A stretch of 64,000 bases of DNA from Parcubacteria group bacterium (GCA_041660065.1 JBAZXC010000002.1:25084-89083), one strand, 5' to 3'; shown: positions 9,651-41,849, numbered from the stretch's first letter. The notes: a model not told the origin generated them from the letters alone. A program made the numbers and translations.

Positions 9651-11045
9651 TTACGGTGTATAGCATTTTGGTTTCAGATTTTTTGGATCACTCTGTGCAT
9701 CAACACATAAGCGATTGACTTCGTTATCCGTAAGTGATCGGTCCCACATGCGCAAATCATCAATCGCACCCATATAAAATCCTGTCGTATGATCCTGTGT
9801 ACCGACATACAAAACCTCGCTTGGCACAGTCATAGATGTTCCTGATAGATCCCCTTTCTTCTGTTTGTCATCCACGACGATCTTTACTTCTTCACCACTT
9901 TTCCATCGCCCGACAATATGATGCCAATCCGTATTATCGATCGCATCCTCAGAACATGCCTCTTTATTTTGCACCATAAAACACACTTTACCGGCATCTA
10001 GATATACTTTATACCCATCACTGCTTGCATATTGCGATACGAGCGTGCCCGTGGAGCTTGCGACATCTTGCTTGATCCACAGAGAAATTGTGACACTATC
10101 GGTAAAATCGATCTTATTTTCCGTTGCTTTATCGACACAATTAAAATCATCAATGCCACAATTATTATCAATGTACATTGCCAGATAATCCGTGCCATCA
10201 AAATAGATTGCTTCTTGTGCATCATCGCCATACGGACTACCGATCACAGCGTCCTCCACCACAAAACCATCCACCCATGCTTCATCTTTTTCCGGTTCCA
10301 TAAAGTCTGTACTATTAGCCTCACACTCTGGAGAGAAGTCTACGACATTCCCCATTTTTGTGCCATCCGGTAGCGTGACCTTCACTGAATCTTCTTCCGG
10401 GTGGCACAGCGTCAAGACATGATCGTTTTTAGAAGAATCTTGTGCGATATACGCCTTTTCATCCTCGGTGAGTCGTGAATTGATCGCACGATCTTCAAAT
10501 GACCAGTGTGCCACAAGTCCCCGCGTCAAACTGTCACGCAATTTTACAAAAACCGCACGCACTGCCGTGCTATAGTTACCGGCAACTTTGAACCGCGCCA
10601 CATCTGCCAATTGCGCGTCACAATGTTGCAATGGTACCAAGTCAGAAGCCAAAACATCTTTTCTGAGATCCCATCCGGAATCATGTTCAACAACGGGATT
10701 TTCCATATATGCAGAAATGATGAACTCTGTATTCTTGTCACCGATATGCGCGGGAATTTCTGCAGACGGTCCGTCAACACATTTATAAACACCTGCACCA
10801 TAGATCTCATTCAATTTACCCGTCAATACACTAAGCGTATCGGTCTGCTCCAAATCCTTGTATAGCTGTTGAAGAAACTCTTCCATGCCCTTATCAGCTT
10901 GTTGAAATGCCGTTGTGGAATTCACAGAAATGTTGGCACTGCGTCGCTCCACCAACGTCACCGCCGCGACGGAAAAAGCCGCGATCAAAATGAATGATAA
11001 AACGATAAGTGCAAAAACGACAATGGAACCTTTGTGATATTTCAT
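9651..11045 (-). CDS. Membrane-anchored LamG / concanavalin A-like lectin domain protein (pilus-associated; candidate tip or adhesin protein)
   Basis: N-terminus MKYHKG followed by a hydrophobic helix, pilin-leader-like but lacking Glu+5. C-terminal motif IDDLRMWDRSLTDNEVNRL is typical of LamG-fold (LamG_3-like) domains. Last gene of the pilin/pseudopilin block. Confidence 0.55.
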   Translation of the reverse strand: MKYHKGSIVVFALIVLSFILIAAFSVAAVTLVERRSANISVNSTTAFQQADKGMEEFLQQLYKDLEQTDTLSVLTGKLNEIYGAGVYKCVDGPSAEIPAHIGDKNTEFIISAYMENPVVEHDSGWDLRKDVLASDLVPLQHCDAQLADVARFKVAGNYSTAVRAVFVKLRDSLTRGLVAHWSFEDRAINSRLTEDEKAYIAQDSSKNDHVLTLCHPEEDSVKVTLPDGTKMGNVVDFSPECEANSTDFMEPEKDEAWVDGFVVEDAVIGSPYGDDAQEAIYFDGTDYLAMYIDNNCGIDDFNCVDKATENKIDFTDSVTISLWIKQDVASSTGTLVSQYASSDGYKVYLDAGKVCFMVQNKEACSEDAIDNTDWHHIVGRWKSGEEVKIVVDDKQKKGDLSGTSMTVPSEVLYVGTQDHTTGFYMGAIDDLRMWDRSLTDNEVNRLCVDAQSDPKNLKPKCYTP

Positions 11046-11063
11046 ATCATCTAATTTAATAAC

Positions 11064-11810
11064 CTAAAAACTAAGATCTGGCGGATAATCTCGTAGTGAG
11101 ACAGAGGTTTGAATATAGATTGGCTGATCTCTCCTTTGTTCATAGAGGATATTTGTGCTCGACGGCAACACAGACATACCGATCGTCACGCGTCCGATCG
11201 TATCGGTTTTTTGGGAATCAAGTTGATCCATATAGCGCGTTGGTGCAGTCCAAAATTTCCCCGTAACATATCCGCTGGTCAACCGCTCCAATTTATAATC
11301 CGGACTACTCGGTACATACGTCGCATCTTTCGTACATTCCTCAATCTGATCAAAGCCAATTCCTACCATAGATTCGACCCATAGCGCACTATCATCATAT
11401 TTGCTTCCTGCCCGACCCTCGCCTGTCGCAAAATAAAACCGCATACACAATTCTTGCGAAAAATCATAAAGTACTAACTTGTTTGATCCATCAATACGCA
11501 AAAGAGAAAAATCATCCGTGTTCCCCTGTGCACTCGCGAATTGTGCCGGATCACGCAAGTCCTCATTATTCCTCCCCAATACCGTCGCCGTGCGCAATGT
11601 CTTTGCCATGTAGTTCATCGCAAATTGCGCATTTTCCAGATCATTTTGCGATACACGCGCATTTCGATATGCCTGAATTTGCCGTGCAAAGATGCCCACG
11701 ATCGCCGTCATGATGATGAGAAAAATGAAAATCGACACCATGAGCTCGATAAGCGTAAATCCTTTTTTGCAATTTTTTATTCTCCAATTATTCATTGTAT
11801 GATTTTTCAT
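11064..11810 (-). CDS. Pseudopilin / minor pilin (prepilin-type N-terminal cleavage/methylation domain)
   Basis: KKG|FTLIELMVSIFIFLII class III signal peptide. Start chosen at MKNHTMNNW; the ORF extends to 11885. Confidence 0.7.
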   Translation of the reverse strand: MKNHTMNNWRIKNCKKGFTLIELMVSIFIFLIIMTAIVGIFARQIQAYRNARVSQNDLENAQFAMNYMAKTLRTATVLGRNNEDLRDPAQFASAQGNTDDFSLLRIDGSNKLVLYDFSQELCMRFYFATGEGRAGSKYDDSALWVESMVGIGFDQIEECTKDATYVPSSPDYKLERLTSGYVTGKFWTAPTRYMDQLDSQKTDTIGRVTIGMSVLPSSTNILYEQRRDQPIYIQTSVSLRDYPPDLSF

Positions 11811-11815
11811 AGTTA

Positions 11816-12466
11816 TCAATCGCCATAGTTGATCCATGACGTCAGTCGCGTTTGCGCATAGACACATCCTTTTGCGATCATGCAATCCTTTTCAATATTT
11901 GCTTTCGTCGGGAAATCCGCGCCGCCAAAAACCACCACACTTGTCACATTCGCGATAATCTCATCTGGTGGCGTTGCTGCATTTATCGGGCCATTATTGG
12001 ACCGATCGTATTCTATGTAAATCTTTCGACGCAAGCCGGTTTCAAGAAACGTATTTCCTCCGGATTGATGCGTATACATACCGGTTGCCGTGTTGAGATA
12101 GATCTCCGATGGAGAGTTATTACACAAAAACTTAGAATCCGTCCCCCCAGTGTTATAGTCGATCGTACACTCAATGATCTGTGATCCTGTAATTGATGGA
12201 AATCCGTATTCTTGATCAAATGCCGTGCACCGCTCTGAACCGGTTCCGCATGTTGACTGCGTCACGTTATTATCTCGCACATTGCGCACCAACTCCGTCC
12301 CTTCTTGCGCGAGCAATGTCGCGATCACCGCATCACGACTGTCATGCAAATCTCCCACGCTTCGCACAGTCAGATAGATTGCATCCACAATACCCACAAG
12401 CAAAATAAACATCGCCACCATCACCTCGCCGATCGAAAAACCTCTTTTGTTTTTTTTATTATACAT
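11816..12466 (-). CDS. Pseudopilin / minor pilin
   Basis: KRG|FSIGEVMVAMFILLVGIV prepilin motif. Start chosen at MYNKKNKRG; the ORF extends to 12487. Confidence 0.65.
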   Translation of the reverse strand: MYNKKNKRGFSIGEVMVAMFILLVGIVDAIYLTVRSVGDLHDSRDAVIATLLAQEGTELVRNVRDNNVTQSTCGTGSERCTAFDQEYGFPSITGSQIIECTIDYNTGGTDSKFLCNNSPSEIYLNTATGMYTHQSGGNTFLETGLRRKIYIEYDRSNNGPINAATPPDEIIANVTSVVVFGGADFPTKANIEKDCMIAKGCVYAQTRLTSWINYGD

Positions 12467-12471
12467 AAATT

Positions 12472-13071
12472 TCAATAAAACGGACATGCAATATCACTAT
12501 CATTGAATCCCAACTCCTCTATAAGTCCGGTCGAATATACACAGACGTGGAATTTTTTGTCTTCATTGTTCTTTTTAATCACAAAATCAGTGCCCGTACT
12601 TGGGACTGTTTCCTGCGTGCCGCTGTCATAATATTTGCCATAGGGCACCGTAAAAATTACATGATCACTTACGCGACCCCTACTGTCATGTCCTGTAATG
12701 CTCATCCCATTGGAAGAAACATCCTCTGACAAAAAAGGGACGCCATATGCGTTTACATCCGTGTCCGTCGGACAAAATGTATCTATTGTACGCTGTGTTC
12801 CCCGAATGCTATAACCACTACTACCATTCAAAATAAATGCAAAAGAGCATGGCAACATGTCATTGTCACGCTGGCGACCTGTCAATGCGTTATTTTGCGC
12901 CTCACGCACAGCAGCAGAAACTTCTCGTCCGACAGCCTCAAGCTCTTTGGTCGAACGATCCTTAAATGAGATCACAAACATCACCATCGTCATAATCACA
13001 ATGATCGCAACGATAATGACCATTTCCAACAGTGAAAAACCTCGCCTCGTCCGTATTTTTGTTTTATACAT
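12472..13071 (-). CDS. Pseudopilin / minor pilin
   Basis: RRG|FSLLEMVIIVAIIVIM prepilin motif. Start chosen at MYKTKIRTRRG; the ORF extends to 13086. Confidence 0.7.
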   Translation of the reverse strand: MYKTKIRTRRGFSLLEMVIIVAIIVIMTMVMFVISFKDRSTKELEAVGREVSAAVREAQNNALTGRQRDNDMLPCSFAFILNGSSGYSIRGTQRTIDTFCPTDTDVNAYGVPFLSEDVSSNGMSITGHDSRGRVSDHVIFTVPYGKYYDSGTQETVPSTGTDFVIKKNNEDKKFHVCVYSTGLIEELGFNDSDIACPFY

Positions 13072-13142
13072 ATGTGTATTATCCATATGTCCCTTATTAT
13101 ATCATACACAATTCAAATTTGCACAAAGACGCGCAGATCACA

Positions 13143-13940
13143 TCACAAAAAAAGCGAGATCATATGCGGATAGACATTTTGCACGACAAATGCCGCACCC
13201 AGACCAAAGATGAGAAACGGACCAAAAGGCACTTCCGTCTTGAGAGATCGTTTTTTGATCACCATAAGACCGATCCCATAGATCGCACCCACGCAAAACG
13301 CTACCAAAAGTGCGATAAACGTGCCGATCGGTCCCAAAAGAAGTCCTATGGCAATCGCGATAAACGCATCCCCATATCCCATCCATGTTTCATCGGAGAT
13401 ATAACTCAATCCAAAGAAAAAACAAAACGCCACCACTGCACTCATGCCATGCGTAAAAGAAACACTACTCCACACATCCGTCCAAAAAGCGTCAATATGA
13501 AGATCTCGTGTCATATTTGCAACGATAAGCAATGCAATAGCCATCCACATCACATTCATGGGAATTTCCATGTATTTCCAATCATACACAAAAATAACGA
13601 CCAGATGCGCAAACACAAAAGCATACAGCACCGCAACAAGAAGATGATCAATTGATCCATGCACAAAAAAAGCACCAACAGCACCAAAGATCGCTCCCGT
13701 AGCAAACTCGACCAACGGATATTGCATCGAGATTTTCTTTTGACATGCGCGACATTTGCCACGCAATAAAATATAACTCAAAACCGGAATGTTATCTTTC
13801 CATGCAATATTTTTTTTGCACTGCGGACAGTGTGATTTTTGCACGACCAATCCCTCCCCTGTGCGCAAACGGCAAATCACCACATTGCAAAAACTCCCAA
13901 TCACCAACCCATAAATAAAAAAGAGAATTATATAGATCAT
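13143..13940 (-). CDS. pilD: Prepilin peptidase (A24 family, PilD-like)
   Basis: N-terminal TM helix, zinc-binding CxxC...CxxC (CPQCKK...CRACQKK) in the first cytoplasmic loop, and a polytopic membrane domain. Confidence 0.85.
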   Translation of the reverse strand: MIYIILFFIYGLVIGSFCNVVICRLRTGEGLVVQKSHCPQCKKNIAWKDNIPVLSYILLRGKCRACQKKISMQYPLVEFATGAIFGAVGAFFVHGSIDHLLVAVLYAFVFAHLVVIFVYDWKYMEIPMNVMWMAIALLIVANMTRDLHIDAFWTDVWSSVSFTHGMSAVVAFCFFFGLSYISDETWMGYGDAFIAIAIGLLLGPIGTFIALLVAFCVGAIYGIGLMVIKKRSLKTEVPFGPFLIFGLGAAFVVQNVYPHMISLFL

Positions 13941-14010
13941 ATTTATTACATATCCACTTTTGACTTTTGCATTTATACTTTTTACTTTTGCCTTTTGACT
14001 TTTGACTTAT

Positions 14011-14427
14011 CTAGCATCCTTCATCGCTGACAAAACCGATCTCACTGTACGTGATGCTTGTACAATTTCCCGCGTTTCCCGTTCCCGGGGTGATTACAAT
14101 CTCAAAATGTCCGTCAAAATCACATTGTATCGGCACTGTGACCGCACCAATATGTGCATCATCAGGATACACGCTATCAGCCAGATCCGTATCACTGCAA
14201 ATCGCCACAGTAGAGCCTGCATTGACCGCCTTACTTTGGATGTCTCCATTCTCATCACAGCACATAATACCCGCCTTGTGGATCGTTGCCGCACTCGACT
14301 TGAATGAAGCGTCCTTTGCCTTATTACGTGCATATCCCAAGGTCGTCAAGATGATTGACGCCAAAATACCAATGATCGCTATTGTGATCAAAAGCTCGAT
14401 CAATGTAAAGGCTTTTTTGGTATGCAT
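14011..14427 (-). CDS. Type IV pilin (major-pilin-like) with a Cys-rich, Ser/Thr-rich C-terminal domain
   Basis: MHTKKA|[19 protein letters not shown]. The residue at -1 is Ala rather than the canonical Gly. Shares the ARNKAK(D/Q)ASFKSSA segment and the Cys pattern (CC...C...C...GC end) with the pilin at 34054-34440. Confidence 0.8.
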   Translation of the reverse strand: MHTKKAFTLIELLITIAIIGILASIILTTLGYARNKAKDASFKSSAATIHKAGIMCCDENGDIQSKAVNAGSTVAICSDTDLADSVYPDDAHIGAVTVPIQCDFDGHFEIVITPGTGNAGNCTSITYSEIGFVSDEGC

Positions 14428-14524: not shown

Positions 14525-15241
14525 CTATAAATAGGCACGGTGTTTGAACTCTTTGCTACTTGAGGGAATGAAAAAAGTATCCATTTGCCAAAAAGATTTA
14601 TCATGTTTTCTCAACATTAGATCAACTATTTCTATTGGAGAAAAACCCCGCTCTTCCATATATGCACACATTTGATAATATTTGAGGCTATCGTTTGTAA
14701 TTTGAAAGTTATAAGTCTCCAATATTATCAATTCAGCAGATCTGATAATTTCTTTTGCGCCCTCTAAAATTGGTATTTCAAATCCATGTGTGTCAAGTTT
14801 CAATAAATAAGGACCTTTCAACTGTCTTCTTTTGATCTCATTGTCAAGTGAAATTGCGTGTACTTCAACGCCATTTTCAAATGGTGTATCGGATGCCAGT
14901 CCTCCAAACTTAGCATGATTATCAAAATAGATTTTTCCATCTTTTTCGCCTGCTGCTGCAACTATAAATTGGGCATTTTTATTTTTGTGAACAAATTTAT
15001 TGAGGTCATCAGTGTGTGCATCTTGCGCATCTACAAGTAGATAATCTGCCTTCGGAAAAGTTTCCATGCAAAGTTTCGACCACTGGCCATTGGATGCACC
15101 TATATCAATAACAGTCTTGGGGTTTATTCCTCTCTGAGAACATCTTTTCAGCCCACCCCTCATTGTTAAATTTTCACCATGAATCTGACTATGAATGAAT
15201 TCGGATGTTTCTCTTTTAAAATTTAAGATACTGTTTATCAT
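14525..15241 (-). CDS. FkbM-family methyltransferase
   Basis: IDIGASNGQWS motif and a C-terminal KLDTHGFE...ILETYNF region, characteristic of the FkbM family. Confidence 0.7.
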   Translation of the reverse strand: MINSILNFKRETSEFIHSQIHGENLTMRGGLKRCSQRGINPKTVIDIGASNGQWSKLCMETFPKADYLLVDAQDAHTDDLNKFVHKNKNAQFIVAAAGEKDGKIYFDNHAKFGGLASDTPFENGVEVHAISLDNEIKRRQLKGPYLLKLDTHGFEIPILEGAKEIIRSAELIILETYNFQITNDSLKYYQMCAYMEERGFSPIEIVDLMLRKHDKSFWQMDTFFIPSSSKEFKHRAYL

Positions 15242-15249
15242 AATATTTA

Positions 15250-15350: not shown

Positions 15351-16595
15351 TTAGCCCTTTTCCAATAAAATATCTTCATATAATTGTATGTATTTTTTTG
15401 CGACAATTTTTGAGTCAAATGTTGCCACTACTTTTTTCCTTGCATTTACTCGGAGATCCGCACAATTTTCATTATGCAAGATCCATTCAATGCCCTGGGC
15501 CAGATCCTTTGTGTCAAAAGGTTTTGCCACATATCCATTTTTTTTGTGATCGATCATGTCACTGTTGCCACCAATATCAAATCCCACAACAGGCGTCGCG
15601 CATGACAAACTCTCCATGATGGCATTTGAGAGATTTTCCTGTAAACTCGGTACCACCATCACATCAGCGGCACTATATAGGTTCACCAACTCCATATCAT
15701 TGTTGATGTGTCCCAAGTAATGTGTTTTAAAACCAAAATCCTGATCTTGATCCTCTTTGGCATTTCCAAAAACCACCAGCTCGATATCATCCGACTGCAA
15801 TTGATGCAATGCGGCGCATAATTCTTTAAAGCCTTTTCTGGGATCTTCTGTAGAATTTACTGCGCCAAACAGCACAAGCTTCTTATCCTGTGGCAAATTG
15901 AACATCTTCCGTGCCTCGGTTTTTTCCACTGCACAAAACACCGTCGTATCTATAGGATTTGGCAAGTTGATGTGCCGGTGATTTTTGAGCAGACTGCTTT
16001 GCTTGGAACACTCCGTCAACCATTTGCTTAAGCCGACTATGGTCAAATTTTTCATTTGAGAAAAAACATCACTCTTTCTTTTGAAAATTTTTCTACTGAG
16101 GTCTTTCTCTTTTTTACTGCGCAATACTTTGCAATTTCCGCATTGCGCATGATATAAACCACATTCATCATCATAATGACATCCGCCCGTAAATGCCCAC
16201 ATATCGTGCAATGACCACACAATAGGTGCGTTGATTTTTGACAGATCCTCTATTTTTATCATGCCCAGACAGATCCAGTGCAAATGCACAATATCAGGAT
16301 CAATCTCATTGATACGATCCACGATGCTCCTGTGAGGAAACCATGAGGAACTGAAAAATGCTTTCGTCTTATTGCGATAGGGATACAAATGAATCGCATC
16401 TATAATTGGACGCAAGTTATTGAAAAATTTGTAAATTTTGGATTTTTCAGTTATTACAGTCTCATCATCGCTCCTTTTGTACTGCACAAGCATCTGACTA
16501 TCGATGCCCTGACCTAACAACGAACGATGAAGTCTATGTGCCGCCCGTGCCGCACCACCATAAATATCAAATGTATTAACTATGAGTATTTTCAT
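15351..16595 (-). CDS. Glycosyltransferase family 4 (GT-B, Glycos_transf_1)
   Basis: N-terminus GGAARAAHRL and C-terminus VVPSLQENLSNAIMESLSCATPVVGFDIGG (E-X7-E-like motif). Confidence 0.8.
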   Translation of the reverse strand: MKILIVNTFDIYGGAARAAHRLHRSLLGQGIDSQMLVQYKRSDDETVITEKSKIYKFFNNLRPIIDAIHLYPYRNKTKAFFSSSWFPHRSIVDRINEIDPDIVHLHWICLGMIKIEDLSKINAPIVWSLHDMWAFTGGCHYDDECGLYHAQCGNCKVLRSKKEKDLSRKIFKRKSDVFSQMKNLTIVGLSKWLTECSKQSSLLKNHRHINLPNPIDTTVFCAVEKTEARKMFNLPQDKKLVLFGAVNSTEDPRKGFKELCAALHQLQSDDIELVVFGNAKEDQDQDFGFKTHYLGHINNDMELVNLYSAADVMVVPSLQENLSNAIMESLSCATPVVGFDIGGNSDMIDHKKNGYVAKPFDTKDLAQGIEWILHNENCADLRVNARKKVVATFDSKIVAKKYIQLYEDILLEKG

Positions 16596-17422
16596 TTTAT
16601 AATTGATCTCTTTATAGATTTTAACGTAGTCTCCATAAATTTCAAAATAGGAAAAGAAAATTTTGATAACTTCTCAAAAAATCTTATTTGAACCCAATTT
16701 TGGTCTTTAACTTTGACCTTTTGAAAGATCGTCGCATGACTTCCTGCCAATTTCCCAATCACTTTGAGCCCCATCATCATCGCAAAGAGATTGAATGTGT
16801 ATCGGAAATGAAAATTTTGAGGCAGATGACACTTGATAACGGGGAAAAAGCAATTTGCGATGATCAAATAGCCATCTTTTTTTACGGCTTTTATCATCCC
16901 CGCAAAATCCTCTAGAGGATCCGAAACGTGCTCCAAAACATCCGTACTCACCAGACAATCATATTCAAAATCCAATTTATCCACGATTGTGATATTTCCA
17001 AATTCCTCCGCTCTTTTTAAACCAAATTCACTTGGATGCGGTTCATAAATATTTACACTGCTTTTTCCATCTTTTTGCGCCACCAATCTCGCCAAAGTGC
17101 CGAAACCTCCGCCGTAATCAAGCACGTTTTTTATGTCATGATCGACAATCCAATCACTTATGGCATGACGGTGACCCATCGAAACATCATCCTGCTCTAT
17201 AAATAATCCGTTTAATAACCAAACCGGATGAGAATAATATCGTGATATTTTCTCAAAATTATTTTTTTTATTATCGCACCCATATTCATCCCAAACCAAA
17301 TCCATCAAATACCACATTTGCTCAAGATCATCGACCATGCTCGCATTGGCCTTTTGCAATAGATTCACGACCTCTCTCCTTTCTCTTTCTGTTAAATTTT
17401 TATCTTCTAAACTGATTTTCAT
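16592..17422 (-). CDS. Class I SAM-dependent methyltransferase
   Basis: Motif I VLDYGGGFGTLARL. ATGA overlap with the downstream gene. Confidence 0.65.
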   Translation of the reverse strand: MKISLEDKNLTERERREVVNLLQKANASMVDDLEQMWYLMDLVWDEYGCDNKKNNFEKISRYYSHPVWLLNGLFIEQDDVSMGHRHAISDWIVDHDIKNVLDYGGGFGTLARLVAQKDGKSSVNIYEPHPSEFGLKRAEEFGNITIVDKLDFEYDCLVSTDVLEHVSDPLEDFAGMIKAVKKDGYLIIANCFFPVIKCHLPQNFHFRYTFNLFAMMMGLKVIGKLAGSHATIFQKVKVKDQNWVQIRFFEKLSKFSFPILKFMETTLKSIKRSIIK

Positions 17423-33996: not shown

Positions 33997-34053
33997 AAAA
34001 CTCTATCTACTTGCTGTTTACCATAAACAGCAAGTAAGAACAATCTTTTTGTA

Positions 34054-34440: not shown

Positions 34441-34641
34441 CTATATGTCACCTCCATTCTTTTTTTGTTTTTTTCTTTACTAAACTATTATACACCCGAA
34501 TGTCAAAATATGTAACCCCTCCATCCACAACTTATACCCATGCCAGTTTTCAATGATCAATTATCAATTTTCAAAAAAATAATTTCTTGCGCTTTCAATT
34601 TCTACTCCCTACCACCTACTTACTACCACCTACTCCCTAGA

Positions 34642-35992: not shown

Positions 35993-37093
35993 TTATTCTT
36001 CAATATGTATTTGCTCTCCCCGCCCCACAAGCATACGGACATAATCACGATTCTTGGCATATGTCATTGCATAATCCAATGAGATGTCGCCGGACTGCAA
36101 CAATTGCGCAAGCGCTTTGTCCAGAGAGATCATCCCTTCTTTTGAGCTTGTTTCGATCACGGTGTCGATCTGATATGTTTTGTCTTCGCGGATGAGATTC
36201 TCGATCGCATGATTCTTGATCATGATCTCGCATGCCGGCACGCGACCGCCATTTGTATGTGGGATCAAGCGTTGTGACATGACACCGAGAAGCACATTTG
36301 CAAGTTGCGCGCGGATCTGATTTTGCTGATGTGACGGAAATGTATCCACAATACGATCGATCGTTTGTGCCGCATCATTGGTATGCAGTGTGGCAAAGAT
36401 CAAATGTCCGGTTTCTGCAGCAGTGATCGCCGTGCCAATCGTTTCAAGATCACGCATCTCTCCAATCAATATCACATTGGTATCCTCACGCAATGCCGCA
36501 CGCAGAGCACCGGAAAATGTTTGCGAATCCTGTCCGATCTCCCTTTGATTGATAATGCAGAGATCCTGCTCATACATATACTCGATCGGATCTTCGATGG
36601 TGATCACATGACTTTTCTTGTTGTGGTTGATATAATCCACAAGCGCGGCAAGCGTCGTTGACTTCCCATGTCCTACCGGACCCGTTACGAGAAAGAGTCC
36701 CTGCGAAAAATTTGCAAATTCATAAACCAATTGTGGCACACCCAATTCATCAAGCTGTCGAATATGACTATTGATCACACGCATGACAATGCCGACATGA
36801 CCCCTCTGATAAAACACATTGGTACGAAATCGCACTTTTTCTTCCAAACTGTACGAAAAATCAATTTCACCACTTTCGAGAAATTTTTCCTTATGATGTG
36901 CATTCATGAAGTAGTCCGCAAACGCTTTTGTATCTTCCGGTAACAAAACGGCCTCTTGTTCAAGCGGGATCAGCTTTCCATCGATCCTAAGGGTTGGATG
37001 TCTTCCTACGGCAAAATGAAGATCTGACGCATTTTGTTGTGCACCCAATCGCAATAAATTTTTCAACCGTTGTTCTACGTGTAAAGAGCTCAT
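35993..37093 (-). CDS. pilT: Type IV pilus retraction ATPase PilT
   Basis: Walker A GPVGHGKSTTLAA, ITIEDPIEY, and an AIRNLIRE-like helix (AIENLIREDK). 366 aa. Confidence 0.85.
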   Translation of the reverse strand: MSSLHVEQRLKNLLRLGAQQNASDLHFAVGRHPTLRIDGKLIPLEQEAVLLPEDTKAFADYFMNAHHKEKFLESGEIDFSYSLEEKVRFRTNVFYQRGHVGIVMRVINSHIRQLDELGVPQLVYEFANFSQGLFLVTGPVGHGKSTTLAALVDYINHNKKSHVITIEDPIEYMYEQDLCIINQREIGQDSQTFSGALRAALREDTNVILIGEMRDLETIGTAITAAETGHLIFATLHTNDAAQTIDRIVDTFPSHQQNQIRAQLANVLLGVMSQRLIPHTNGGRVPACEIMIKNHAIENLIREDKTYQIDTVIETSSKEGMISLDKALAQLLQSGDISLDYAMTYAKNRDYVRMLVGRGEQIHIEE

Positions 37094-37141: not shown

Positions 37142-37531
37142 CTATGTCATGTATTTTTGCACCTTTGCCAAAACTTCCGATGGTGTAAAATGTGATTTGA
37201 TCAAAAAATCTTTTGCACCAAGCGCCATGCCTCGATCCACATCTTCTTTTTGTGAAAGATTTGTCAGCAAAACGACAGGGATTTCCTTCCATTCCGGACG
37301 ATGACTGATCGCCTCCAAAACATCAAAGCCATCCATATACGGCATGACAATGTCCAAAAGCATGATATTGGGTCGCGCGCCGGCCTCCAACTTTTCAATT
37401 GCATCACGACCGTTACTTGCCAAAATGACGTTATATCCCGCATCTTTCAGCTTTACCTCATAAATATCGCCAATGAACGCATCGTCTTCCGCGATCATGA
37501 TGGTTTTTTTTGTTGTTTCTTCTTGTGTCAT
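37142..37531 (-). CDS. Stand-alone CheY-like response regulator receiver domain
   Basis: Acidic pocket EDD, phospho-acceptor D in LLDIVMPYMDG, conserved T (LLTNL) and K (KDFLIKS). 129 aa with no output domain. Confidence 0.8.
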   Translation of the reverse strand: MTQEETTKKTIMIAEDDAFIGDIYEVKLKDAGYNVILASNGRDAIEKLEAGARPNIMLLDIVMPYMDGFDVLEAISHRPEWKEIPVVLLTNLSQKEDVDRGMALGAKDFLIKSHFTPSEVLAKVQKYMT

Positions 37532-37561: not shown

Positions 37562-39292
37562 TCAATGCGCGTGTTTTTTATCCTTTTGCATCTGATCCTC
37601 ATCAGTGACTTCATCAAGTTTTCCGCCAATGCTCATATCCCCTTCCGTAACGCGTTCGAGCTCAGACAACGTTGTCAATCCAAGCAGTACTTTCAGTATA
37701 CCATCTTGTTTCAAAGTAATAAATCCCTTATTGCGCGCTTGTCTTTCAACCTTGACGATATTACCTTCTTCTTCTACGATCAAATTTTGCATGTCATTAT
37801 CCACTTCAATTGCTTCATAGAGAGCGAGGCGTCCTTTCAATCCCAATTCGCCACAGTTCTTGCACCCTTTCCCATGATAAAATTTGAACCCCTGTGATAT
37901 ATCCAATCCGTATTTTTTCATTTCCTCCTCGGATACACCTTCCAAATCACGTTTGATCTGCTCCACGATATTATCCGGCATATGCATTTCCTCTTTACAA
38001 TCCGGACAAATGCTTCGCACCAGGCGCTGCGCAGCGATCACGCGCAAAGCGGATGCGATCAGAAACGGCTCAATGCCCAAATCAATAAGTCGTGGCAACG
38101 CACCAATGGCATTATTTGTATGCACCGTCGAAAAAACAAGATGTCCGGTAAGCGCAGCATGTACAGCGAGTTCTGCAGTTTCACCATCACGAATCTCACC
38201 TACCATGATCACATTTGGATCCTGACGGAGAATACTGCGCAAACCGCTTGCAAAAGAATATCCGATTTCCGGCTTGACCTGTGATTGGTTGATGCCCGGA
38301 ACAAAATACTCTACGGGATCCTCCAATGTAATAATGTTTCGTTCCTCCCCATTGAGAATCTGCAAAAAAGCATACAATGTGGTGGATTTCCCCGATCCGG
38401 TCGGCCCTGTCATAAGGATCATGCCATACGGATCTTTGATGCGCTTCAAGAACATCTCATGCTGTGTGCCCATCATACCAAGTTCAATAAGATCAAATGT
38501 CTGACGATCCTTTTCCAAAACACGCATCACAATTTTTTCACCCTCAACAACAGGCAAACTGGATACACGAAAATCAATATCATTTCCCTGATCATTGATG
38601 CGAAACCGTCCATCTTGCGGCTTGCGTCTTTCATCAATTTTCAAATTAGAAAGGATCTTAATGCGAGAAATTACCGCTCTACCCACATCCTCAGGAAATG
38701 TCAGAGATGCATGCAAAATACCATCCTGTCGAAAACGCACACGATATGTTTTGTCAATTGGTTCAATATGAATGTCTGATGCCTTTCCATCCAACGCATG
38801 CTTGATAATCACATGCACAAGCTTTGCCACAGGCGCATCTTGGATACTTTCTCTCTCACCGATAACATTAAGTGAGTCTTTTTTCTCCTCATCTTCAATC
38901 TCAAAAGATTGCACCACATCTTCCACCGCTTTTTCGGCACTACCATACAACGCATAGAGTTTCTCCAACAATTCATCCCCGGCGAGATAGATCTCAATAT
39001 TCATATGATCCTTCTGCGCAATAAATCGCAAAATATTCAACGCATTGACATCCTGTATATCTTTCATGGCGACGTGCAGTGTTTTGGTTTTTTTGTCACG
39101 ATCAAAAATCGCAATTCTATTTTTCTTTGCGATATCTTCAGACAACATCTGAATTGATTCTCGATTTGCATTCGTCGGTATATCTACCAGCACTTTCACT
39201 CCCAATTCCTGTGCACGCGCGACAAGCTGATCACGCTCATCGTGATCCTTTTGCCCGACATCATCCTGCGTTTCGTTTTCGCCTTGTGTCAT
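37562..39292 (-). CDS. pilB: Type IV pilus assembly ATPase PilB (GspE family)
   Basis: Walker A MTGPTGSGKSTT, a tetracysteine motif CPDCK...CKNC and an N-terminal GspE_N-like domain. Confidence 0.9.
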   Translation of the reverse strand: MTQGENETQDDVGQKDHDERDQLVARAQELGVKVLVDIPTNANRESIQMLSEDIAKKNRIAIFDRDKKTKTLHVAMKDIQDVNALNILRFIAQKDHMNIEIYLAGDELLEKLYALYGSAEKAVEDVVQSFEIEDEEKKDSLNVIGERESIQDAPVAKLVHVIIKHALDGKASDIHIEPIDKTYRVRFRQDGILHASLTFPEDVGRAVISRIKILSNLKIDERRKPQDGRFRINDQGNDIDFRVSSLPVVEGEKIVMRVLEKDRQTFDLIELGMMGTQHEMFLKRIKDPYGMILMTGPTGSGKSTTLYAFLQILNGEERNIITLEDPVEYFVPGINQSQVKPEIGYSFASGLRSILRQDPNVIMVGEIRDGETAELAVHAALTGHLVFSTVHTNNAIGALPRLIDLGIEPFLIASALRVIAAQRLVRSICPDCKEEMHMPDNIVEQIKRDLEGVSEEEMKKYGLDISQGFKFYHGKGCKNCGELGLKGRLALYEAIEVDNDMQNLIVEEEGNIVKVERQARNKGFITLKQDGILKVLLGLTTLSELERVTEGDMSIGGKLDEVTDEDQMQKDKKHAH

Positions 39293-39307: not shown

Positions 39308-40021
39308 TTATGGTAAAAATGGGTTTGGTCTGTTCGTCGACTGCGACACTAACGGATTTGTCTGTGCTGTTGCTTTCATCACAGTATCAATAGAATCAAA
39401 ATCCGTCTTTTGATCAAATGTCGATGGATTGACTTGTGCCTGTCCAGGGATATAGCCATATGCAAAAGAGATCACACCACTGAGCATTTGTTCTTGTTGC
39501 ATGTCCACTGCAGCTCCCCCTTCACTTTTTTCTTTCTCAACTTTTGTCAATTCAAGTGTCTTGAAAGCATATAACCGTTTGAGATGAAAAAGCTCGTATG
39601 AAAACTTCTTGAATTCCTCATATGTACCACTTGCGATCATTTTTCCTTCGATCAGGTATGCTTGTTGATCCGCAGCTGCAGAAGATCGTACATCTTGCCG
39701 TCCTTCAGAAAAACCGACAGAAAACAAACTCACACCGGACTTCTCCGCAAGTTGCGAAATATCACTAAGAATAATCTCCTCTCGTTGATCATTTGGCACA
39801 AAATCCATAACAAAACTCTTTTCTTCTGGATGACTCTTTACCGTATCCACAAAAGCATTCACATTCTTTTGTTTTTCTTGCGCCTTCGCAAGCATTTCCT
39901 TTTTTTGGACAACGGTCTTTTTTTCCGTAGAAATTGAACGCGATGTCGGTACAACCAGTGCAATCACAAAATAAAGCACTAGCAGTAAAATAACAGGAAA
40001 CAGGAGCATTCTAATGATCAT
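39308..40021 (-). CDS. PilO-like inner-membrane pilus alignment protein (positional call)
   Basis: N-terminal TM helix followed by a coiled-coil-like region. Sits between pilN-like and pilB. Confidence 0.4.
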   Translation of the reverse strand: MIIRMLLFPVILLLVLYFVIALVVPTSRSISTEKKTVVQKKEMLAKAQEKQKNVNAFVDTVKSHPEEKSFVMDFVPNDQREEIILSDISQLAEKSGVSLFSVGFSEGRQDVRSSAAADQQAYLIEGKMIASGTYEEFKKFSYELFHLKRLYAFKTLELTKVEKEKSEGGAAVDMQQEQMLSGVISFAYGYIPGQAQVNPSTFDQKTDFDSIDTVMKATAQTNPLVSQSTNRPNPFLP

Positions 40022-40047
40022 ATTTTTATTTTATTAGTAAATATACA

Positions 40048-40749
40048 TTATTGATTTAGCGTCGTGTCACTTGCCGTTGCATCGCTTTGCGACGGCAACA
40101 AAACCTCATTGTTAACATTGTCCGGCACCGCTGCCACAACATCATCATATGGCGACGCTGTGGATGGCTTTACATCCATCGTAAGCGTAAAGATGATCCG
40201 ACCGAAATCATCACGGTCCGTTGTACCCACTTTTACATTTTCAAAATATTCACTCTTTTTGAAAACATCGATTTGTTGTGCCATGACATCGAATGTATCT
40301 GAATCCGCAGTGATCGTTACCTTTCCTTGTCCGGTAATTGTTGAGCTGACAGTTCCCACCGTCTTTTTTTCATGTGCGCCGGAATCATGTTGAAACGATT
40401 TCAAAACCACGCGAGGAATCATGATCCTCTCGATCTCTTGGAAAATATCATTTGTGTCATATCCGCGATATAATTCCTTATCCATAACGTGTGATCGCAC
40501 AGCAAAGTCCGATGTTTCACCGGATAGTGATTTGACAATTTCATCATTGACAGCTGTAATTTCTCCATCCAAAACATCTGACTCGGAGCGCAATGAACTT
40601 TCCCATAATTTCAAAAGTCCATATGATGCAATAACTACAACAAGCACGCCGAAAGAAACAAGAAGCGCCCTCGAAATCGTTCTCTTACGCGGTGTCCCGC
40701 CTTGATCATCTTCAACTGCTGTATTTTTAAAACCAATTCCTGAAACCAT
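40048..40749 (-). CDS. PilN-like protein (positional call)
   Basis: Short cytoplasmic N-terminus, a single TM helix (LLVSFGVLVVVIASYGLL) and a periplasmic domain. Immediately downstream of pilM. Confidence 0.45.
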   Translation of the reverse strand: MVSGIGFKNTAVEDDQGGTPRKRTISRALLVSFGVLVVVIASYGLLKLWESSLRSESDVLDGEITAVNDEIVKSLSGETSDFAVRSHVMDKELYRGYDTNDIFQEIERIMIPRVVLKSFQHDSGAHEKKTVGTVSSTITGQGKVTITADSDTFDVMAQQIDVFKKSEYFENVKVGTTDRDDFGRIIFTLTMDVKPSTASPYDDVVAAVPDNVNNEVLLPSQSDATASDTTLNQ

Positions 40750-40796
40750 ATTTTTATTTTTAATGATTTAAAAAAATATATATAAAAATTTATACA

Positions 40797-41849
40797 TCAA
40801 TGCGATCCTTTTTCATCGATCCCTCGCAAAGCAAGTCCAATTGCGACAGAAAATGCCGAGGAAAGATCTTTGATTTTACCGGAAGTATTCTCATCATATA
40901 CGACATGGCTTAGTGGATTACCCATTGTCACTTTTAATCCTGTAAGTTGCGCCATATACTCTGGCAACCCCACAAGAAGCGACCCACCCCCGCAAAGGAC
41001 CAATGACTCTACAACATCGCTTTTTTGTGTATCCAAAACGCGTTTCACCTCATTTGCCACGAAATTCAATGACGGAAATCCCACCTTTGTTGCCCCCGTA
41101 AAAAAATTTTCTCCCCCCTCTTTCAAAACAACAGCACGTTCTCGTGTGATATTCAAGCTTTGCATGATCGCATTGGTCATATCAGATCCGCCAATATCAA
41201 CACTGCGACTGATATGCACGATACCATTCTCTACCAAAACGATATTTGTCGTTTTCGCACCCATATCCACCAGAATGAAGCGCCCTTTTGTATTGCCGAT
41301 AATTGCACGCGCAAGTGAAAAAGATTCCAGCTCCAACGAATCGATCACTACTGGTACATCTTTGAATAAACTGTCATAATATTGCACTTCACTCTTTGGC
41401 GCGGCAACAAGTAGCACCTTCATCGTTGGATTTTCTTTGTCTTTTTCGGTTTCTTCCTCATCCAAAACATCCCAGCTGACATTCACTTCATCCAATGATG
41501 CGGGAATATATTTTCGTGATTCAAATTTGATCGCAGAAGCAACATCTTTTTCACTCATGCGCGGGAAATCCACGATCATCACCAGACCATTGAAACTCGG
41601 AATTGCAACGATCGCCTTTCTTGCAGTTGGCTTCATCTGAGAAAATAGCTCCCGCAATGCATCACTCAAACGCTTCGCGTAATCATTATCATATGCATCG
41701 GGAACTTCTTTGATATTTGTCACGTTCACCCACCCATAATTCGTCAAATACGGCCTCCCCTTGGAAACCTTTAACTCCACAGCCTTGATTGACTGTGTTC
41801 CAAAATCCACCCCAAGATAATGTCCTGACCGTGAAGAAAACAATGACAT
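40797..41849 (-). CDS. pilM: Type IV pilus assembly protein PilM (actin-like ATPase fold)
   Basis: LGVDFGTQSIKAVEL N-terminal phosphate-1 motif and an ASKHA fold. 350 aa. Confidence 0.8.
   Translation of the reverse strand: MSLFSSRSGHYLGVDFGTQSIKAVELKVSKGRPYLTNYGWVNVTNIKEVPDAYDNDYAKRLSDALRELFSQMKPTARKAIVAIPSFNGLVMIVDFPRMSEKDVASAIKFESRKYIPASLDEVNVSWDVLDEEETEKDKENPTMKVLLVAAPKSEVQYYDSLFKDVPVVIDSLELESFSLARAIIGNTKGRFILVDMGAKTTNIVLVENGIVHISRSVDIGGSDMTNAIMQSLNITRERAVVLKEGGENFFTGATKVGFPSLNFVANEVKRVLDTQKSDVVESLVLCGGGSLLVGLPEYMAQLTGLKVTMGNPLSHVVYDENTSGKIKDLSSAFSVAIGLALRGIDEKGSH

Follow-up and report, generated by a model that had tools for sequence, protein, structure and literature searches.

What is a long run of glycan genes doing between the two pilin genes of a type IV pilus cluster, and does it act on the pilus? 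The locus that raises this question lies in 64,000 nucleotides of DNA (GCA_041660065.1 JBAZXC010000002.1:25084-89083), hereafter the window, from a tiny uncultured bacterium of the Moraniibacteria (Patescibacteria). The combined pilus and glycan cluster occupies its minus strand from 41849 to 9651.

The pilus backbone and its setting

Gene families were assigned with Pfam and NCBIfam, and the GT-C proteins with structure prediction and a fold search; longest-ORF starts lie too far upstream for a few genes. The outcome bears out the gene order and families of an initial annotation, with the PilN-like and AsnB-like assignments weak. The pilus genes and the signals around them are as follows.

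40797..41849, minus: PilM, actin-like pilus alignment protein (Pfam PilM_2, E 2.4e-38)
40048..40749, minus: PilN-like (weak Pfam PilN, E 0.006, below cut-off)
39308..40021, minus: PilO (Pfam PilO, E 2.2e-6, 28.3 bits)
37562..39292, minus: PilB extension ATPase (Pfam T2SSE, E 6e-130, plus MshEN)
37142..37531, minus: CheY-like receiver (Pfam Response_reg, E 1.1e-21)
35993..37093, minus: PilT retraction ATPase (Pfam T2SSE, E 3.4e-45)
34642..35850, minus: PilC platform protein (Pfam T2SSF, E 1.7e-55, two repeats)
34487..34516, minus: promoter-like site GTTACA-18-TATAAT (consensus scan, pattern match only)
34054..34440, minus: pilin 1, 128 aa (Pfam N_methyl, E 7.8e-9; TIGR02532)
33991..34035, minus: terminator-like hairpin, 14-bp stem and U-run, directly past the pilin 1 stop (fold z-score -4.05)
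14011..14427, minus: pilin 2, 138 aa from ATG (Pfam N_methyl, E 4.7e-8)
13143..13940, minus: PilD prepilin peptidase (Pfam A24_N_bact, E 5.8e-34; Peptidase_A24, E 1.6e-11)
11064..13086, minus: three minor pilins/pseudopilins at 12472-13086, 11816-12487 and 11064-11885 (Pfam N_methyl, E 6e-4, 3.5e-4 and 2.9e-9)
9651..11045, minus: LamG/pentraxin-domain protein with an N-terminal membrane helix (Pfam Laminin_G_3, E 1.6e-18)
9609..9633, minus: intrinsic-terminator-like hairpin, 10-bp stem and T-run, 18 nt past the LamG stop

The PilN-like gene keeps its place between PilM and PilO in relatives, and in almost every related locus the CheY-like gene holds the same place among the pilus genes. No secretin gene was seen in this Patescibacterium host. 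Pilin 1 has the class III signal KKGFTLIE and a Cys-rich globular part, and the two pilins are paralogous, as proposed, with 49% identity. The third pseudopilin probably starts near 11810. The LamG protein, which gives a weak NCBIfam match to fimbrial TafC and whose gene occupies the same place in two related loci (L004 and L005), is probably a pilus-associated lectin-like adhesin. The cluster's 3′ end is marked by the strong hairpin behind the LamG gene, first among the minus-strand terminator-like sites listed for 9000-26000.

The description of the locus as a one-strand supercluster holds in that every gene is on the minus strand, but this is not specific to the cluster. When long ORFs are filtered longest first, the minus-strand run extends from 60 to 50092, its exceptions being three shadow ORFs that overlap genes, and the shared strand is therefore uninformative; GC skew is below zero over the entire window. 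The reported 4-20 nt overlaps between adjacent genes are real (16592/16595, 18196/18211, 22935/22954 and 23578/23594, for example). GC content is 0.31-0.35 at 16-25 kb, compared with about 0.43 elsewhere in the window. RecA upstream and LigA downstream, non-pilus genes at the locus borders, are also syntenic across these genomes, so that conserved position by itself is weaker evidence here than in other bacteria.

The promoter-like site falls within the 201-nt gap before pilin 1, with a GGAGG ribosome-binding site after it. The hairpin after pilin 1 is kept, with compensatory changes in the alignment, in 10 related loci, where z-scores run from -5.0 to -6.8. Because this conserved terminator-like element separates pilin 1 from the first GT-C gene, the long polycistronic transcript envisaged earlier is unlikely.

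The GT-C enzymes, their synthase and the extended block

Between the pilin genes lie the following. Besides the GT-C enzymes and their synthase, the pilus genes surround about 18 kb of additional glycan genes.

32266..33963, minus: GT-C1, membrane glycosyltransferase of GT-C fold, unannotated family
30504..32261, minus: GT-C2, GT-C1 paralogue (46% identity by alignment; DDH at residues 68-70)
29585..30496, minus: GT2 polyprenyl-phosphate sugar synthase, GtrB/DPM1/AglJ-like (Pfam GT2, E 1.3e-21)
28408..29577, minus: GT4 glycosyltransferase (Pfam Glycos_transf_1, E 8.5e-30)
27392..28540, minus: GT2 glycosyltransferase (Pfam GT2, E 9.2e-17)
26577..27356, minus: GT2 glycosyltransferase (Pfam, E 1.5e-27)
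25741..26517, minus: GT2 glycosyltransferase (Pfam, E 4e-26)
24379..25796, minus: Wzx-type (MOP) flippase (Pfam Polysacc_synt, E 4e-25)
23578..24372, minus: FkbM-family methyltransferase (Pfam Methyltransf_21, E 8.2e-27)
22935..23594, minus: class I methyltransferase, weak (Pfam Methyltransf_23, E 8.9e-6, just below cut-off)
21353..22954, minus: AsnB-like amidotransferase, weak (Pfam Asn_synthase, E 0.009; TIGR01536, E 3e-8, far below cut-off)
20200..21333, minus: CapA / PGA_cap protein (Pfam PGA_cap, E 1.7e-56)
19140..19931, minus: FkbM-family methyltransferase (Pfam, E 7.3e-27)
18196..19119, minus: GT2 / GNT-I-like glycosyltransferase (Pfam GNT-I, E 1.8e-6; GT2, E 3.5e-5)
17486..18211, minus: class I methyltransferase (Pfam Methyltransf_11, E 3.2e-13)
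16592..17422, minus: class I methyltransferase (Pfam Methyltransf_23, E 1.2e-9)
15351..16595, minus: GT4 glycosyltransferase (Pfam Glycos_transf_1, E 5.3e-27)
14525..15241, minus: FkbM-family methyltransferase (Pfam Methyltransf_21, E 2e-10)

The GT-C call, which is beyond Pfam's reach, was confirmed by structure prediction and fold search, the nearest folds including PMT, DPY19 and the STT3/AglB/PglB group, protein glycosyltransferases of broad specificity. The probable start of GT-C1 is 33963 (565 aa). In its 576-aa longest ORF a DDH motif occupies residues 54-56, after TM1, and the C-terminal domain, an extramembrane portion with a conserved Cys pair, is modelled as mixed alpha/beta. Alignment of the family reveals a near-invariant acidic residue in the first outer loop, along with numerous charged and aromatic positions that do not vary, as is typical of active sites. 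Sequence searches detect no signature of a known catalytic family. A motif check found neither the WWDYG motif of AglB, STT3 and PglB nor an Emb-type proline motif; Pfam matches neither PMT nor PMT_2, and MIR domains are absent. Paired or triple GT-C copies also occur in five related loci (L003, L006, L013, L014 and L018).

Among NCBIfam models the adjoining GT2 synthase best matches AglJ (TIGR04182), over its full length at 209 bits, below the cut-off of 325, and it also matches PpgS and Dol-P-hexose transferase. From these matches, it probably makes the lipid-linked sugar donor for the GT-C enzymes. In 9 species a GT2 domain is fused to the GT-C N-terminus in one protein; all nine fused domains are 24-30% identical to the GT2 of the window, and two of them reach a Pfam E of 1e-32. 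Such fusions link synthase and transferase, and this linkage and fusion together argue that the GT-C protein is an enzyme that uses the donor concerned.

In the extended block, the GT4 at 28408..29577 has orthologues in L003, L004, L012 and L013. The start of the following GT2 (27392..28540) is uncertain because its longest ORF shares 133 nt with the GT4 gene; it is 61-68% identical to its orthologues in seven Moraniibacteria loci (L001, L003, L004, L006, L012, L013 and L014) and 40-47% identical in L017 and L018. The flippase is frameshifted near 24680 into ORFs 24645-25796 and 24379-24807. Searching with the L003 orthologue (tblastn) placed its residues 1-362 in frame -3 and 359-442 in frame -2. 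Nowhere in the window is there an initiating phosphoglycosyl transferase, a nucleotide-sugar gene, GtrA or a Wzy_C protein. The idea that the block encodes a complete glycan pathway thus fails on two counts, the lack of a priming transferase in the window and the frameshift in Wzx.

A fixed slot between pilC and pilD

A GT-C-anchored scan of species-representative genomes yielded 38 Patescibacteria loci, 34 with enough flanking DNA. In all 34 the GT-C gene, at 22-68% identity, lies between pilC or a pilin and pilD. Short or cut contigs carry the remaining four, of which three have pilins or pilD beside GT-C and L015 (1.7 kb) has neither. In 31/34 loci the nearest recognised gene upstream of GT-C is a pilin, no more than 170 bp away in 28; the three exceptions have in that place either PilC or the synthase, itself preceded by a pilin. 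A GT2 polyprenyl-phosphate-sugar synthase often adjoins GT-C.

The Moraniibacteria order is pilin 1, GT-C (1-3 copies), GT2, GT4, GT2, Wzx, a variable part, pilin 2 and pilD, the block measuring 8-20 kb with variable glycan gene content. The suggestion that relatives would keep the block between pilin genes is upheld by both of its ends in four distinct relatives (L001, L004, L013 and the more distant L017) and by the upstream order pilC, pilin, GT-C in eight more loci (L003, L006, L010, L012, L014, L016, L018 and L019). Distant Patescibacteria have a minimal form in the same slot: apart from pilus genes, the interval from pilC to pilD holds just GT-C, joined in some loci by the synthase and in some by a methyltransferase.

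Neither GT-C nor any other glycosyltransferase occurs in 35 PilC-anchored loci from other Patescibacteria, in 31 of which pilC and pilD are only 0.6-2.6 kb apart. Most often the backbone lacks the insert. At similar PilC distances some loci have it and others do not, the slot being the same throughout, and the 35 insert-free loci thus define it as an accessory module gained or lost at a fixed place. Outside Patescibacteria we found two closer GT-C homologues (32-35% identity) and three distant ones, none of them pilin-adjacent.

A putative pilin glycosylation island and its alternatives

Since relatives keep this arrangement, the pilus subunits are most likely glycosylated. By analogy with pilA-tfpW of P. 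aeruginosa, we consider, with moderate confidence, that the locus is an island serving to glycosylate type IV pilus subunits, one whose two-enzyme core fills the accessory slot that follows the major pilin gene. If so, it would represent pilin glycosylation, so far undescribed for this bacterium's group. The GT2 at 29585-30496 would attach a sugar to polyprenyl phosphate on the cytoplasmic side of the membrane; the lipid-linked sugar would be flipped to the outer face, where GT-C1 and GT-C2 would pass it to pilin before or during pilus assembly. We infer donor, acceptor, residue type and step order alike. In Moraniibacteria the core would be extended by cytoplasmic GT4 and GT2 enzymes, Wzx, methyltransferases, the amidotransferase-like protein and CapA, which may build and decorate a larger, strain-variable glycan. 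As a priming phosphoglycosyl transferase is absent, the glycan may be assembled on a polyprenyl-monophosphate sugar.

The Ser/Thr-rich pilin tails had been quoted exactly and put forward as glycan sites. That of pilin 2, CTSITYSEIGFVSDEGC, is conserved in L001 and L004, but that of pilin 1 is confined to the window, L001 and probably L013 (pilin 84% identical), its remaining orthologues ending in a Cys-rich tail instead. Whether or not a locus has GT-C makes no difference to the Ser+Thr content of its pilins. O-linkage had been assumed; what is enriched in GT-C-adjacent pilins of distant relatives is N-x-S/T sequons, not Ser/Thr.

The block might instead make a cell-envelope glycan (a wall polysaccharide, teichoic-acid-like polymer, S-layer or lipid glycan) that the GT-C proteins decorate or attach, on the model of GtrB/GT-C for O-antigen and CsbB/YfhO for teichoic acids, its position in the pilus locus reflecting ancestral gene order in genomes that are very small and seldom rearranged. 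The Moraniibacteria part does resemble a generic heteropolysaccharide cluster of the Wzx type (GT4, several GT2, MOP flippase, methyltransferases, CapA), with the low GC and variable content of O-antigen loci; known three-component GT-C systems mostly modify polysaccharides, the hairpin uncouples the block from pilin 1, and RecA and LigA, unrelated to pili, share the synteny. We nevertheless find this account doubtful: the loci of distant relatives hold no polysaccharide pathway for GT-C to decorate, the insert comes and goes in one slot, and RecA and LigA stand at the borders whereas GT-C lies inside, between pilins and peptidase. Only the pilins directly upstream of GT-C are enriched in sequons, the minor pilins after PilD are not, and we found no pointer to targets beyond the pilus. 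Both points make it rather improbable that the enzymes glycosylate surface proteins at large (pilins, minor pilins, the LamG adhesin, other secreted proteins) in the manner of Neisseria PglL or actinobacterial Ppm1/Pmt, with the pilus locus a mere gene location. The broad specificity of the nearest folds, the two or three GT-C paralogues per locus, which could mean different acceptors, and the minor pilins and LamG protein at the cluster end would suit such a role. Very improbable, finally, is a non-enzymatic pilus assembly accessory, TfpY/TfpZ-like, that retains a GT-C-like fold. The missing catalytic signature would agree with it, and the Pseudomonas slot after pilA is reported to hold accessory genes of unknown enzymology (PMC11841053); against it, the invariant residues point to an active site, and repeated linkage and fusion to a GT2 synthase fits only a donor-using enzyme.

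Several observations count against the island reading itself: the Ser+Thr result, the unconserved pilin 1 tail, RecA/LigA synteny, the hairpin after pilin 1, the frameshifted Wzx, the absence of a priming transferase and a small GtrA-type flippase, and the non-Patescibacteria homologues, which are not pilin-adjacent.

Among known systems, three-component extracytoplasmic glycosylation (GtrA/GtrB/Gtr-specific GT-C; CsbB/GtcA/YfhO; Kelly et al. 2024, PMC11127046) likewise pairs a GT2 polyprenyl-phosphate sugar synthase with a GT-C at the membrane's outer face, but its acceptors are O-antigen or teichoic acids, not proteins, it includes a small GtrA-type flippase, none of which was seen here, and PMC11127046 makes no mention of GT2-GT-C fusions like those in the 9 species. 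Actinobacterial Ppm1/Pmt O-mannosylation differs in its PMT/PMT_2 and MIR domains, which are lacking here, and in genes that are not pilus-linked.

In the archaeal Agl system (Haloferax AglJ, AglR, AglP, AglB, AglS), which N-glycosylates S-layer proteins, archaellins and type IV pilins, an AglJ-type GT2, the best NCBIfam match of the window GT2, starts the glycan on polyprenyl monophosphate; soluble glycosyltransferases, methylation, a Wzx-like flippase and GT-C transfer to targets including type IV pilin-like proteins follow. The differences are the absent WWDYG motif and the sub-threshold AglJ match.

A precedent in P. aeruginosa had been claimed, and pilin-linked glycosylation genes do exist there, but the closest is tfpW, a GT-C, not tfpO. 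Group I pilA-tfpO (PilO) and Neisseria PglL share with this locus pilin-linked glycosylation genes, a lipid-carrier glycan and a Wzx-type flippase; TfpO and PglL are WaaL/Wzy_C-family enzymes using undecaprenyl-diphosphate oligosaccharides, whereas the window has no Wzy_C protein or priming transferase. Group IV tfpW, directly downstream of pilA, arabinosylates pilin. A sequence relationship to TfpW could not be shown; the GT-C here lacks the Emb-type proline motif, its modelled C-terminal domain is mixed alpha/beta, and the donor would come from a GtrB/DPM1-type GT2 rather than PRPP-derived DprE1/E2. The slot here lies between pilin and pilD in a host with no secretin gene seen, and the Moraniibacteria island reaches 20 kb, including Wzx and a large set of modifying enzymes. 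As in pilA-tfpW(-tfpX) of P. aeruginosa / P. paraeruginosa group IV, however, a GT-C gene with an acidic DDx motif in its first outer loop stands immediately 3′ of the major pilin gene in a strain-variable accessory slot, a polyprenyl-phosphate monosaccharide from cytoplasmic enzymes is the donor (here putatively), and in some species with pilA-tfpW the donor-synthesis genes are clustered alongside.

Gene content and putative transcription signals of the pilus locus

Pfam and NCBIfam searches of the ORFs matched, almost item by item, the gene families and gene order that the initial annotation had read as a pilin O-glycosylation island between two pilin genes; the observation itself is real, and its interpretation is supported in part. 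The machine genes encode PilM, a weak PilN-like protein, PilO, PilB, a CheY-type receiver, PilT and PilC. Type IVa pilus machinery is present in the window (PilB, PilT, PilC, PilM/N/O, PilD and pilins with class III signals), and no secretin was seen among the ORFs of the 64 kb. On its upstream side the locus is flanked by the housekeeping genes for RecA, a RodZ-like protein and FtsK, and on its downstream side by that for LigA. From pilin 1 onward, the features are:

34054-34440, minus strand: pilin 1, followed by two paralogous membrane proteins of 565-585 aa without a family match
32266-33963, minus strand: the first of these proteins, GT-C1
30504-32261, minus strand: the second, GT-C2
29585-30496, minus strand: GT2 synthase, then in order a GT4 enzyme, three GT2 enzymes, a Wzx-type flippase, FkbM and class I methyltransferases, a weak AsnB-like protein, CapA/PGA_cap, a GT2/GNT-I-like enzyme, further methyltransferases and a GT4 enzyme
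14011-14427, minus strand: pilin 2, a paralogue of pilin 1 (49% identity), at the far end of the block and followed by PilD, three pseudopilins and a LamG-domain protein

These genes form an unbroken minus-strand series from 41849 down to 9651, which had been taken as a sign that they constitute a unit. We reject that argument, because the same strand bias covers everything from 60 to 50092, where all long ORFs retained by a longest-first filter lie on the minus strand except three shadow ORFs that overlap genes. GC skew is negative over the whole 64 kb, and the window probably lies within one replichore with a strong gene-strand bias. GC content is 0.31-0.35 at 16000-25000 versus about 0.43 in the rest of the window. 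This low-GC stretch covers the modifying enzymes of the glycan block, a part whose content varies among relatives, and variable glycan regions usually show such a drop. Other genes in the window encode a member of the "23S rRNA-intervening-sequence protein" family (3350-3772), a stand-alone 167-aa C39-like peptidase (54194-54697) and an 827-aa DUF3160 protein (60220-62703).

Consensus scans for promoters and terminators gave site counts near shuffled expectation, and for that reason we use only two strong hairpins and one promoter-like site, with caution. The strongest terminator-like hairpin of the region lies at 9633-9609, 18 nt 3′ of the LamG stop codon. The other, with a 14-bp stem between an A-run and a U-run (33991-34035, minus strand; z -4.05), directly follows the pilin 1 stop codon. 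It is kept in ten loci of the Moraniibacteria clade (the window, L001, L003, L004, L006, L010, L012, L013, L014 and L016), with compensatory changes in the stem, for example CTTGC/GCAAG to TCTAC/GTAGA in L012, and it probably acts as a leaky terminator or stabilises the major pilin mRNA at its 3′ end. The consensus scan and inspection of the sequence place a promoter-like site with a strong ribosome-binding site 5′ of pilin 1. Since a conserved hairpin follows its stop codon and a promoter-like site precedes it, pilin 1 is probably made from a separate, abundant transcript, with the GT-C genes predicted to be expressed by read-through or separately. The same transcript arrangement is typical of pilA-tfpO.

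The GT-C enzymes and the presumed donor pathway

Sequence-level searches of Pfam, NCBIfam and PDB sequences placed the two membrane proteins in no family. An AlphaFold2 model built from an alignment of 30 sequences (pLDDT 85.8, pTM 0.86) was compared with the PDB by Foldseek, and ranks 1-19 were all GT-C enzymes (E down to 2e-7, TM 0.5-0.6), including STT3, ALG12, PglB, DPY19, AftA, ArnT, ALG9, AftB and Pmt4. GT-C1 and GT-C2 are thus GT-C enzymes from an unannotated family, and the structure model and fold search back the earlier identification of two such proteins. A DDH motif directly follows TM1, in the first extracytoplasmic loop (residues 54-56 in GT-C1 and 68-70 in GT-C2); across the 30 sequences F58 and H59 never vary and D55 is kept in at least 90%, and a DDHFFHF motif is common to distant homologues also. 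Alignment and model together place an invariant Glu in a disordered outer loop, and the C-terminal domain, modelled as mixed alpha/beta over residues 411-576, carries invariant aromatics and a Cys pair. The likeness of fold to STT3, AglB and PglB is real, yet it is common to all GT-C enzymes, and the window proteins contain neither WWD nor the W[WY][DE][YFW]G form of the WWDYG motif and have no STT3 Pfam match. They fall outside the PMT/PMT_2 sequence family and lack MIR domains. An identity as EpsG was rejected, the matches being weak and below cut-off and the fold unlike that of Wzy or WaaL; no WaaL-type structure appeared among the top fold matches.

A homologue search with the GT-C returned 60 proteins, the identical one from a MAG labelled "Parcubacteria group bacterium" and the named relatives from Moraniibacteriota; the deposited GT-C1 gene starts 11 codons after the longest-ORF start. 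A profile search of 1.84 billion representatives recovered 2,156 family members at E <= 1e-3 and 1,398 at E <= 1e-10.

A GtrB-like GT2 polyprenyl-phosphate sugar synthase is encoded immediately beyond GT-C2. Over its full length it matches synthases of polyprenyl- and dolichyl-phosphate sugars best: the NCBIfam model for AglJ (209 bits), and also those for PpgS and Dol-P-hexose transferase, all with scores below the curated equivalog cut-offs. From this adjacent synthase and from natural fusions of the two domains, the GT-C is predicted to take a lipid-phosphate-linked sugar as donor. The initial annotation had described a complete pathway of glycan assembly, modification and export, and this part of it does not hold, because the 64-kb window contains no priming phosphoglycosyl transferase (Bac_transf, MraY/WecA-type) and no nucleotide-sugar pathway, no window ORF matches Wzy or Wzy_C, and no GtrA-family small flippase was matched. 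Nor does the cluster hold a free-standing small ORF, its ORFs of 80-140 aa all being nested in larger genes. The Wzx flippase gene is itself frameshifted near 24680, in an A-rich stretch, CCCAAAACACAAAAACACC (window 24645-24690): residues 1-362 of the L003 orthologue match one frame of the window and residues 359-442 another. Orthologues are intact in the related loci L001, L003 and L004 (419-465 aa), and the frameshift reflects either a pseudogene or an assembly error.

The accessory insert in the pilus locus

Patterns derived from the GT-C alignment alone were used to scan one genome per species (GTDB). The 38 loci found, whose labels include Moraniibacteriota, Paceibacterota, Parcubacteria and Minisyncoccia, were annotated by BLAST against the window proteins. 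In 34 of them the GT-C, at identities down to 22-27%, is placed between pilC/pilin and pilD. Four loci stand on contigs that are short or cut; three of these have pilins or pilD beside the GT-C and one (L015, 1.7 kb) shows nothing. In 31 of the 34 the nearest recognised gene 5′ of the GT-C is a pilin, at a distance of 170 bp or less in 28; in the remaining three the GT2 synthase precedes the GT-C and a pilin precedes the synthase. GT-C1 of the window, immediately 3′ of pilin 1 with a gap of about 90 nt, follows the same pattern.

Among relatives whose GT-C is 43-68% identical, the window's layout is kept, including the position of the glycan block between the pilin genes that the initial annotation had proposed to compare. 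Upstream, (RodZ-like)-RecA-pilMNOB-CheY-pilT-pilC-pilin 1 leads into a run of one to three GT-C genes; downstream come GT2, GT4, GT2, Wzx, a variable part, pilin 2, pilD, pseudopilins and LamG. The block measures 8-20 kb in Moraniibacteria and varies in content by genome. In distant lineages the entire insert is a GT-C alone, or a GT-C with a GT2 synthase and sometimes a methyltransferase.

Nine species encode the GT-C as a protein of about 800 aa with a GT2 domain of the polyprenyl-phosphate-sugar-synthase type fused at its N-terminus (L020:9200-11608, L027:9233-11629, L029, L034, L036, L037, L043, L044:9098-11572 and L045), and each fusion gene sits between a pilin gene and pilin-pilD. All nine fused domains are 24-30% identical to the window GT2 synthase, and the two that were checked in Pfam match PF00535 at E 1e-32 to 1e-34. 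Fusion in nine species is direct genomic evidence that synthase and GT-C act in one pathway.

Two GT-C homologues with 32-35% identity are not pilin-adjacent, one of them lying 3.5 kb from pilM, and for three distant homologues outside Patescibacteria no pilus linkage was found, their neighbours being unrelated. Because some homologues are not adjacent to pilins, we regard the pilus-embedded GT-Cs as a Patescibacteria subfamily of a broader GT-C family. The records of four loci assign their MAGs to predatory Proteobacteria (L009 and L012, "Micavibrio sp."; L019 and L021, "Bdellovibrionales"); their pilus loci are syntenic with, and highly similar to, those of Moraniibacteria/Patescibacteria, and these labels are probably wrong. 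L009 also appears to be the same contig as L001 (177,270 versus 177,274 bp, with identical annotation).

Metagenome contigs were also scanned with a PilC alignment, yielding 80 loci whose PilC is 31-50% identical to that of the window. Both PilC and PilD are present in 35, and in 31 of these the interval spans 0.6-2.6 kb and holds one to three pilins. A family HMM (E < 1e-5) detected no GT-C in the 35 loci, nor was any glycosyltransferase present. The PilC distances from the window are similar in GT-C-positive and GT-C-negative loci. Because none of the 35 carries a GT-C, we conclude that the common Patescibacteria backbone is pilMNOB-CheY-pilT-pilC-pilin(s)-pilD-minor pilins-LigA, into which the GT-C module is inserted, as an accessory, at a single fixed point of the pilus locus. 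The idea that another glycosylation enzyme fills the slot in GT-C-negative loci was rejected, since none of their few larger inserts contains a glycosyltransferase; what these carry is an IS200-type transposase, PKD and HYR proteins, an ABC ATPase or further pilins.

Across the compared loci (L001-L126), DNA-handling genes border the pilus locus in conserved order (41918-46501 and 7329-9416 in the window). In the Moraniibacteria clade pilM has RecA as its immediate upstream neighbour, and in most Patescibacteria loci, whether or not they carry a GT-C, the minor pilins are followed at once by LigA; FtsK is also near the pilus locus, and TM7x locus 2 likewise carries recAX (PMC11623550). These syntenic DNA-handling genes fit a role of the pili in DNA uptake. 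Since RecA and LigA also travel with the pilus locus, conserved position is weaker evidence here than it would be elsewhere.

Acceptor, linkage and relation to known systems

On balance we favour the pilins as the acceptor of the GT-C enzymes. The GT2 synthase, whose assignment to a family is clear and whose substrate is presumed, would load a sugar onto polyprenyl phosphate on the cytoplasmic side. The lipid-linked sugar would then reach the outer face of the membrane; the window has no GtrA, and TfpW, the pilin-adjacent GT-C of Pseudomonas group IV, has been proposed to flip its own donor. At the membrane, pilin would receive the sugar from the GT-C enzymes. A larger glycan would be built and decorated in Moraniibacteria, by the GT4 and GT2 enzymes, Wzx, the methyltransferases, the amidotransferase-like protein and CapA; it may be assembled on the monophosphate-linked sugar, because a priming transferase is absent. 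Haloarchaeal Agl pathways assemble their glycan on a monophosphate-linked sugar.

The Ser/Thr-rich tails of the two pilins had been proposed as O-glycan acceptor sites. The tails were quoted exactly, and that of pilin 1 is shared by the window, L001 and probably L013 (84% identical), but other pilin 1 orthologues end in a Cys-rich CTQxGCTF...GC tail, and Ser+Thr content does not differ between loci with and without a GT-C (Mann-Whitney p 0.94 for the globular part and 0.75 for the tail). Ser/Thr richness was accordingly rejected as an acceptor signal. Asparagine behaves differently: the pilins between PilC and the GT-C (L017-L046) contain 2.40 N-x-S/T sequons per 100 aa and 9.2% Asn, versus 0.96 and 5.3% in pilins of GT-C-negative loci (L047-L126). 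This enrichment keeps in play a reading by archaeal logic, in which the GT-C is a bacterial N-glycosyltransferase: an AglJ-like GT2 would start the glycan on polyprenyl monophosphate, the soluble glycosyltransferases and methyltransferases of Moraniibacteria would extend it, and the GT-C would transfer it to the Asn of N-x-S/T in the major pilin.

We consider this reading unlikely. In its favour, sequons in the pilins directly 5′ of the GT-C exceed composition-matched shuffles (115 observed versus 93 +/- 8, z 2.65; reverse motif 78), and the excess survives the use of one pilin per cluster (n=11, z 3.25), although these statistics ignore kinship and the pilins are phylogenetically non-independent. 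It is confined to that position, with none in pilins after the GT-C, in minor pilins or in pilins of GT-C-negative loci; the lack of a diphosphate-forming priming transferase and the presence of STT3, AglB and PglB among the nearest folds point the same way. Yet it is largely the distant clade (z 2.5) that produces the excess, which is weak within Moraniibacteria (z 1.0); pilin 1 of the window has no sequon at all, and the GT-C lacks the WWDYG motif of that enzyme class.

The preferred reading, with the pilins as acceptor, has precedents. Glycosylation by a pilin-adjacent GT-C is already known from TfpW, and three-component GT2/GT-C systems have been described (PMC11127046). As in the TfpW system, with its DDx in loop 1, the GT-C of the window follows a pilin and carries DDH. 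Several genera have tfpW 3′ of pilA, at times in a cluster that also contains its donor-synthesis genes. Both window paralogues lack the TfpW/Emb proline motif Y-x6-PF-x7-P, the TfpW type also has a C-terminal TPR domain, and the families of the TfpW D-arabinofuranose donor route (DprE1/DprE2, GtrA-like) are absent among the window ORFs. The three-component GtrA/GtrB/GT-C systems share the GtrB-like GT2 with the window, where GtrA was not found. TfpO/PglL systems place a Wzy_C protein beside the pilin gene, unlike the window, which has none; as for Wzx/Wzy-dependent assembly, the window has a frameshifted Wzx and lacks a priming transferase, Wzy or a ligase. What is new is an unannotated GT-C family embedded in a Patescibacteria pilus locus, its natural GT2-GT-C fusions, and its growth into an 8-20 kb island in Moraniibacteria. 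Open-access papers and bioRxiv yielded no account of a glycosyltransferase within a pilus locus of Patescibacteria; the one detailed study of Patescibacteria pili lists none in the TM7x pilus loci, guesses at pilin glycosylation from a sequence predictor alone and leaves it to future work (PMC11623550).

No surface machine of Patescibacteria is better conserved than the type IV pilus, on which cultured Saccharibacteria rely for binding to the host, for twitching and for competition (PMC11623550). The locus gives a concrete genetic basis for varying them: a two-enzyme core of lipid-sugar synthase and GT-C, gained or lost in a fixed slot of a pilus locus that is invariant otherwise, and grown in one lineage into a strain-variable island of 8-20 kb. 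If pilins are the acceptor, variation of the pilus glycan is likely to determine host range and evasion of phages or predators in these symbionts; glycosylation of Pseudomonas pilin is reported to block phages specific for the pilus (10.1101/150227). For the GT-C family, which counts about 1,400 cluster representatives (E <= 1e-10), it would also be the first functional assignment.

The position of the window's GT-C follows the accessory-slot logic of the Pseudomonas post-pilA slot, which holds tfpO, tfpW/X, tfpY or tfpZ. Mobile-element genes also occupy the post-pilin slot in three of the compared loci, an IS200-type transposase at L073:13194-13850 and GIY-YIG endonuclease ORFs at L006:17686-17970 and L120:11868-12614, which suggests that the slot is an insertion hotspot. 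The L120 ORF is read together with a pilin N-terminal motif.
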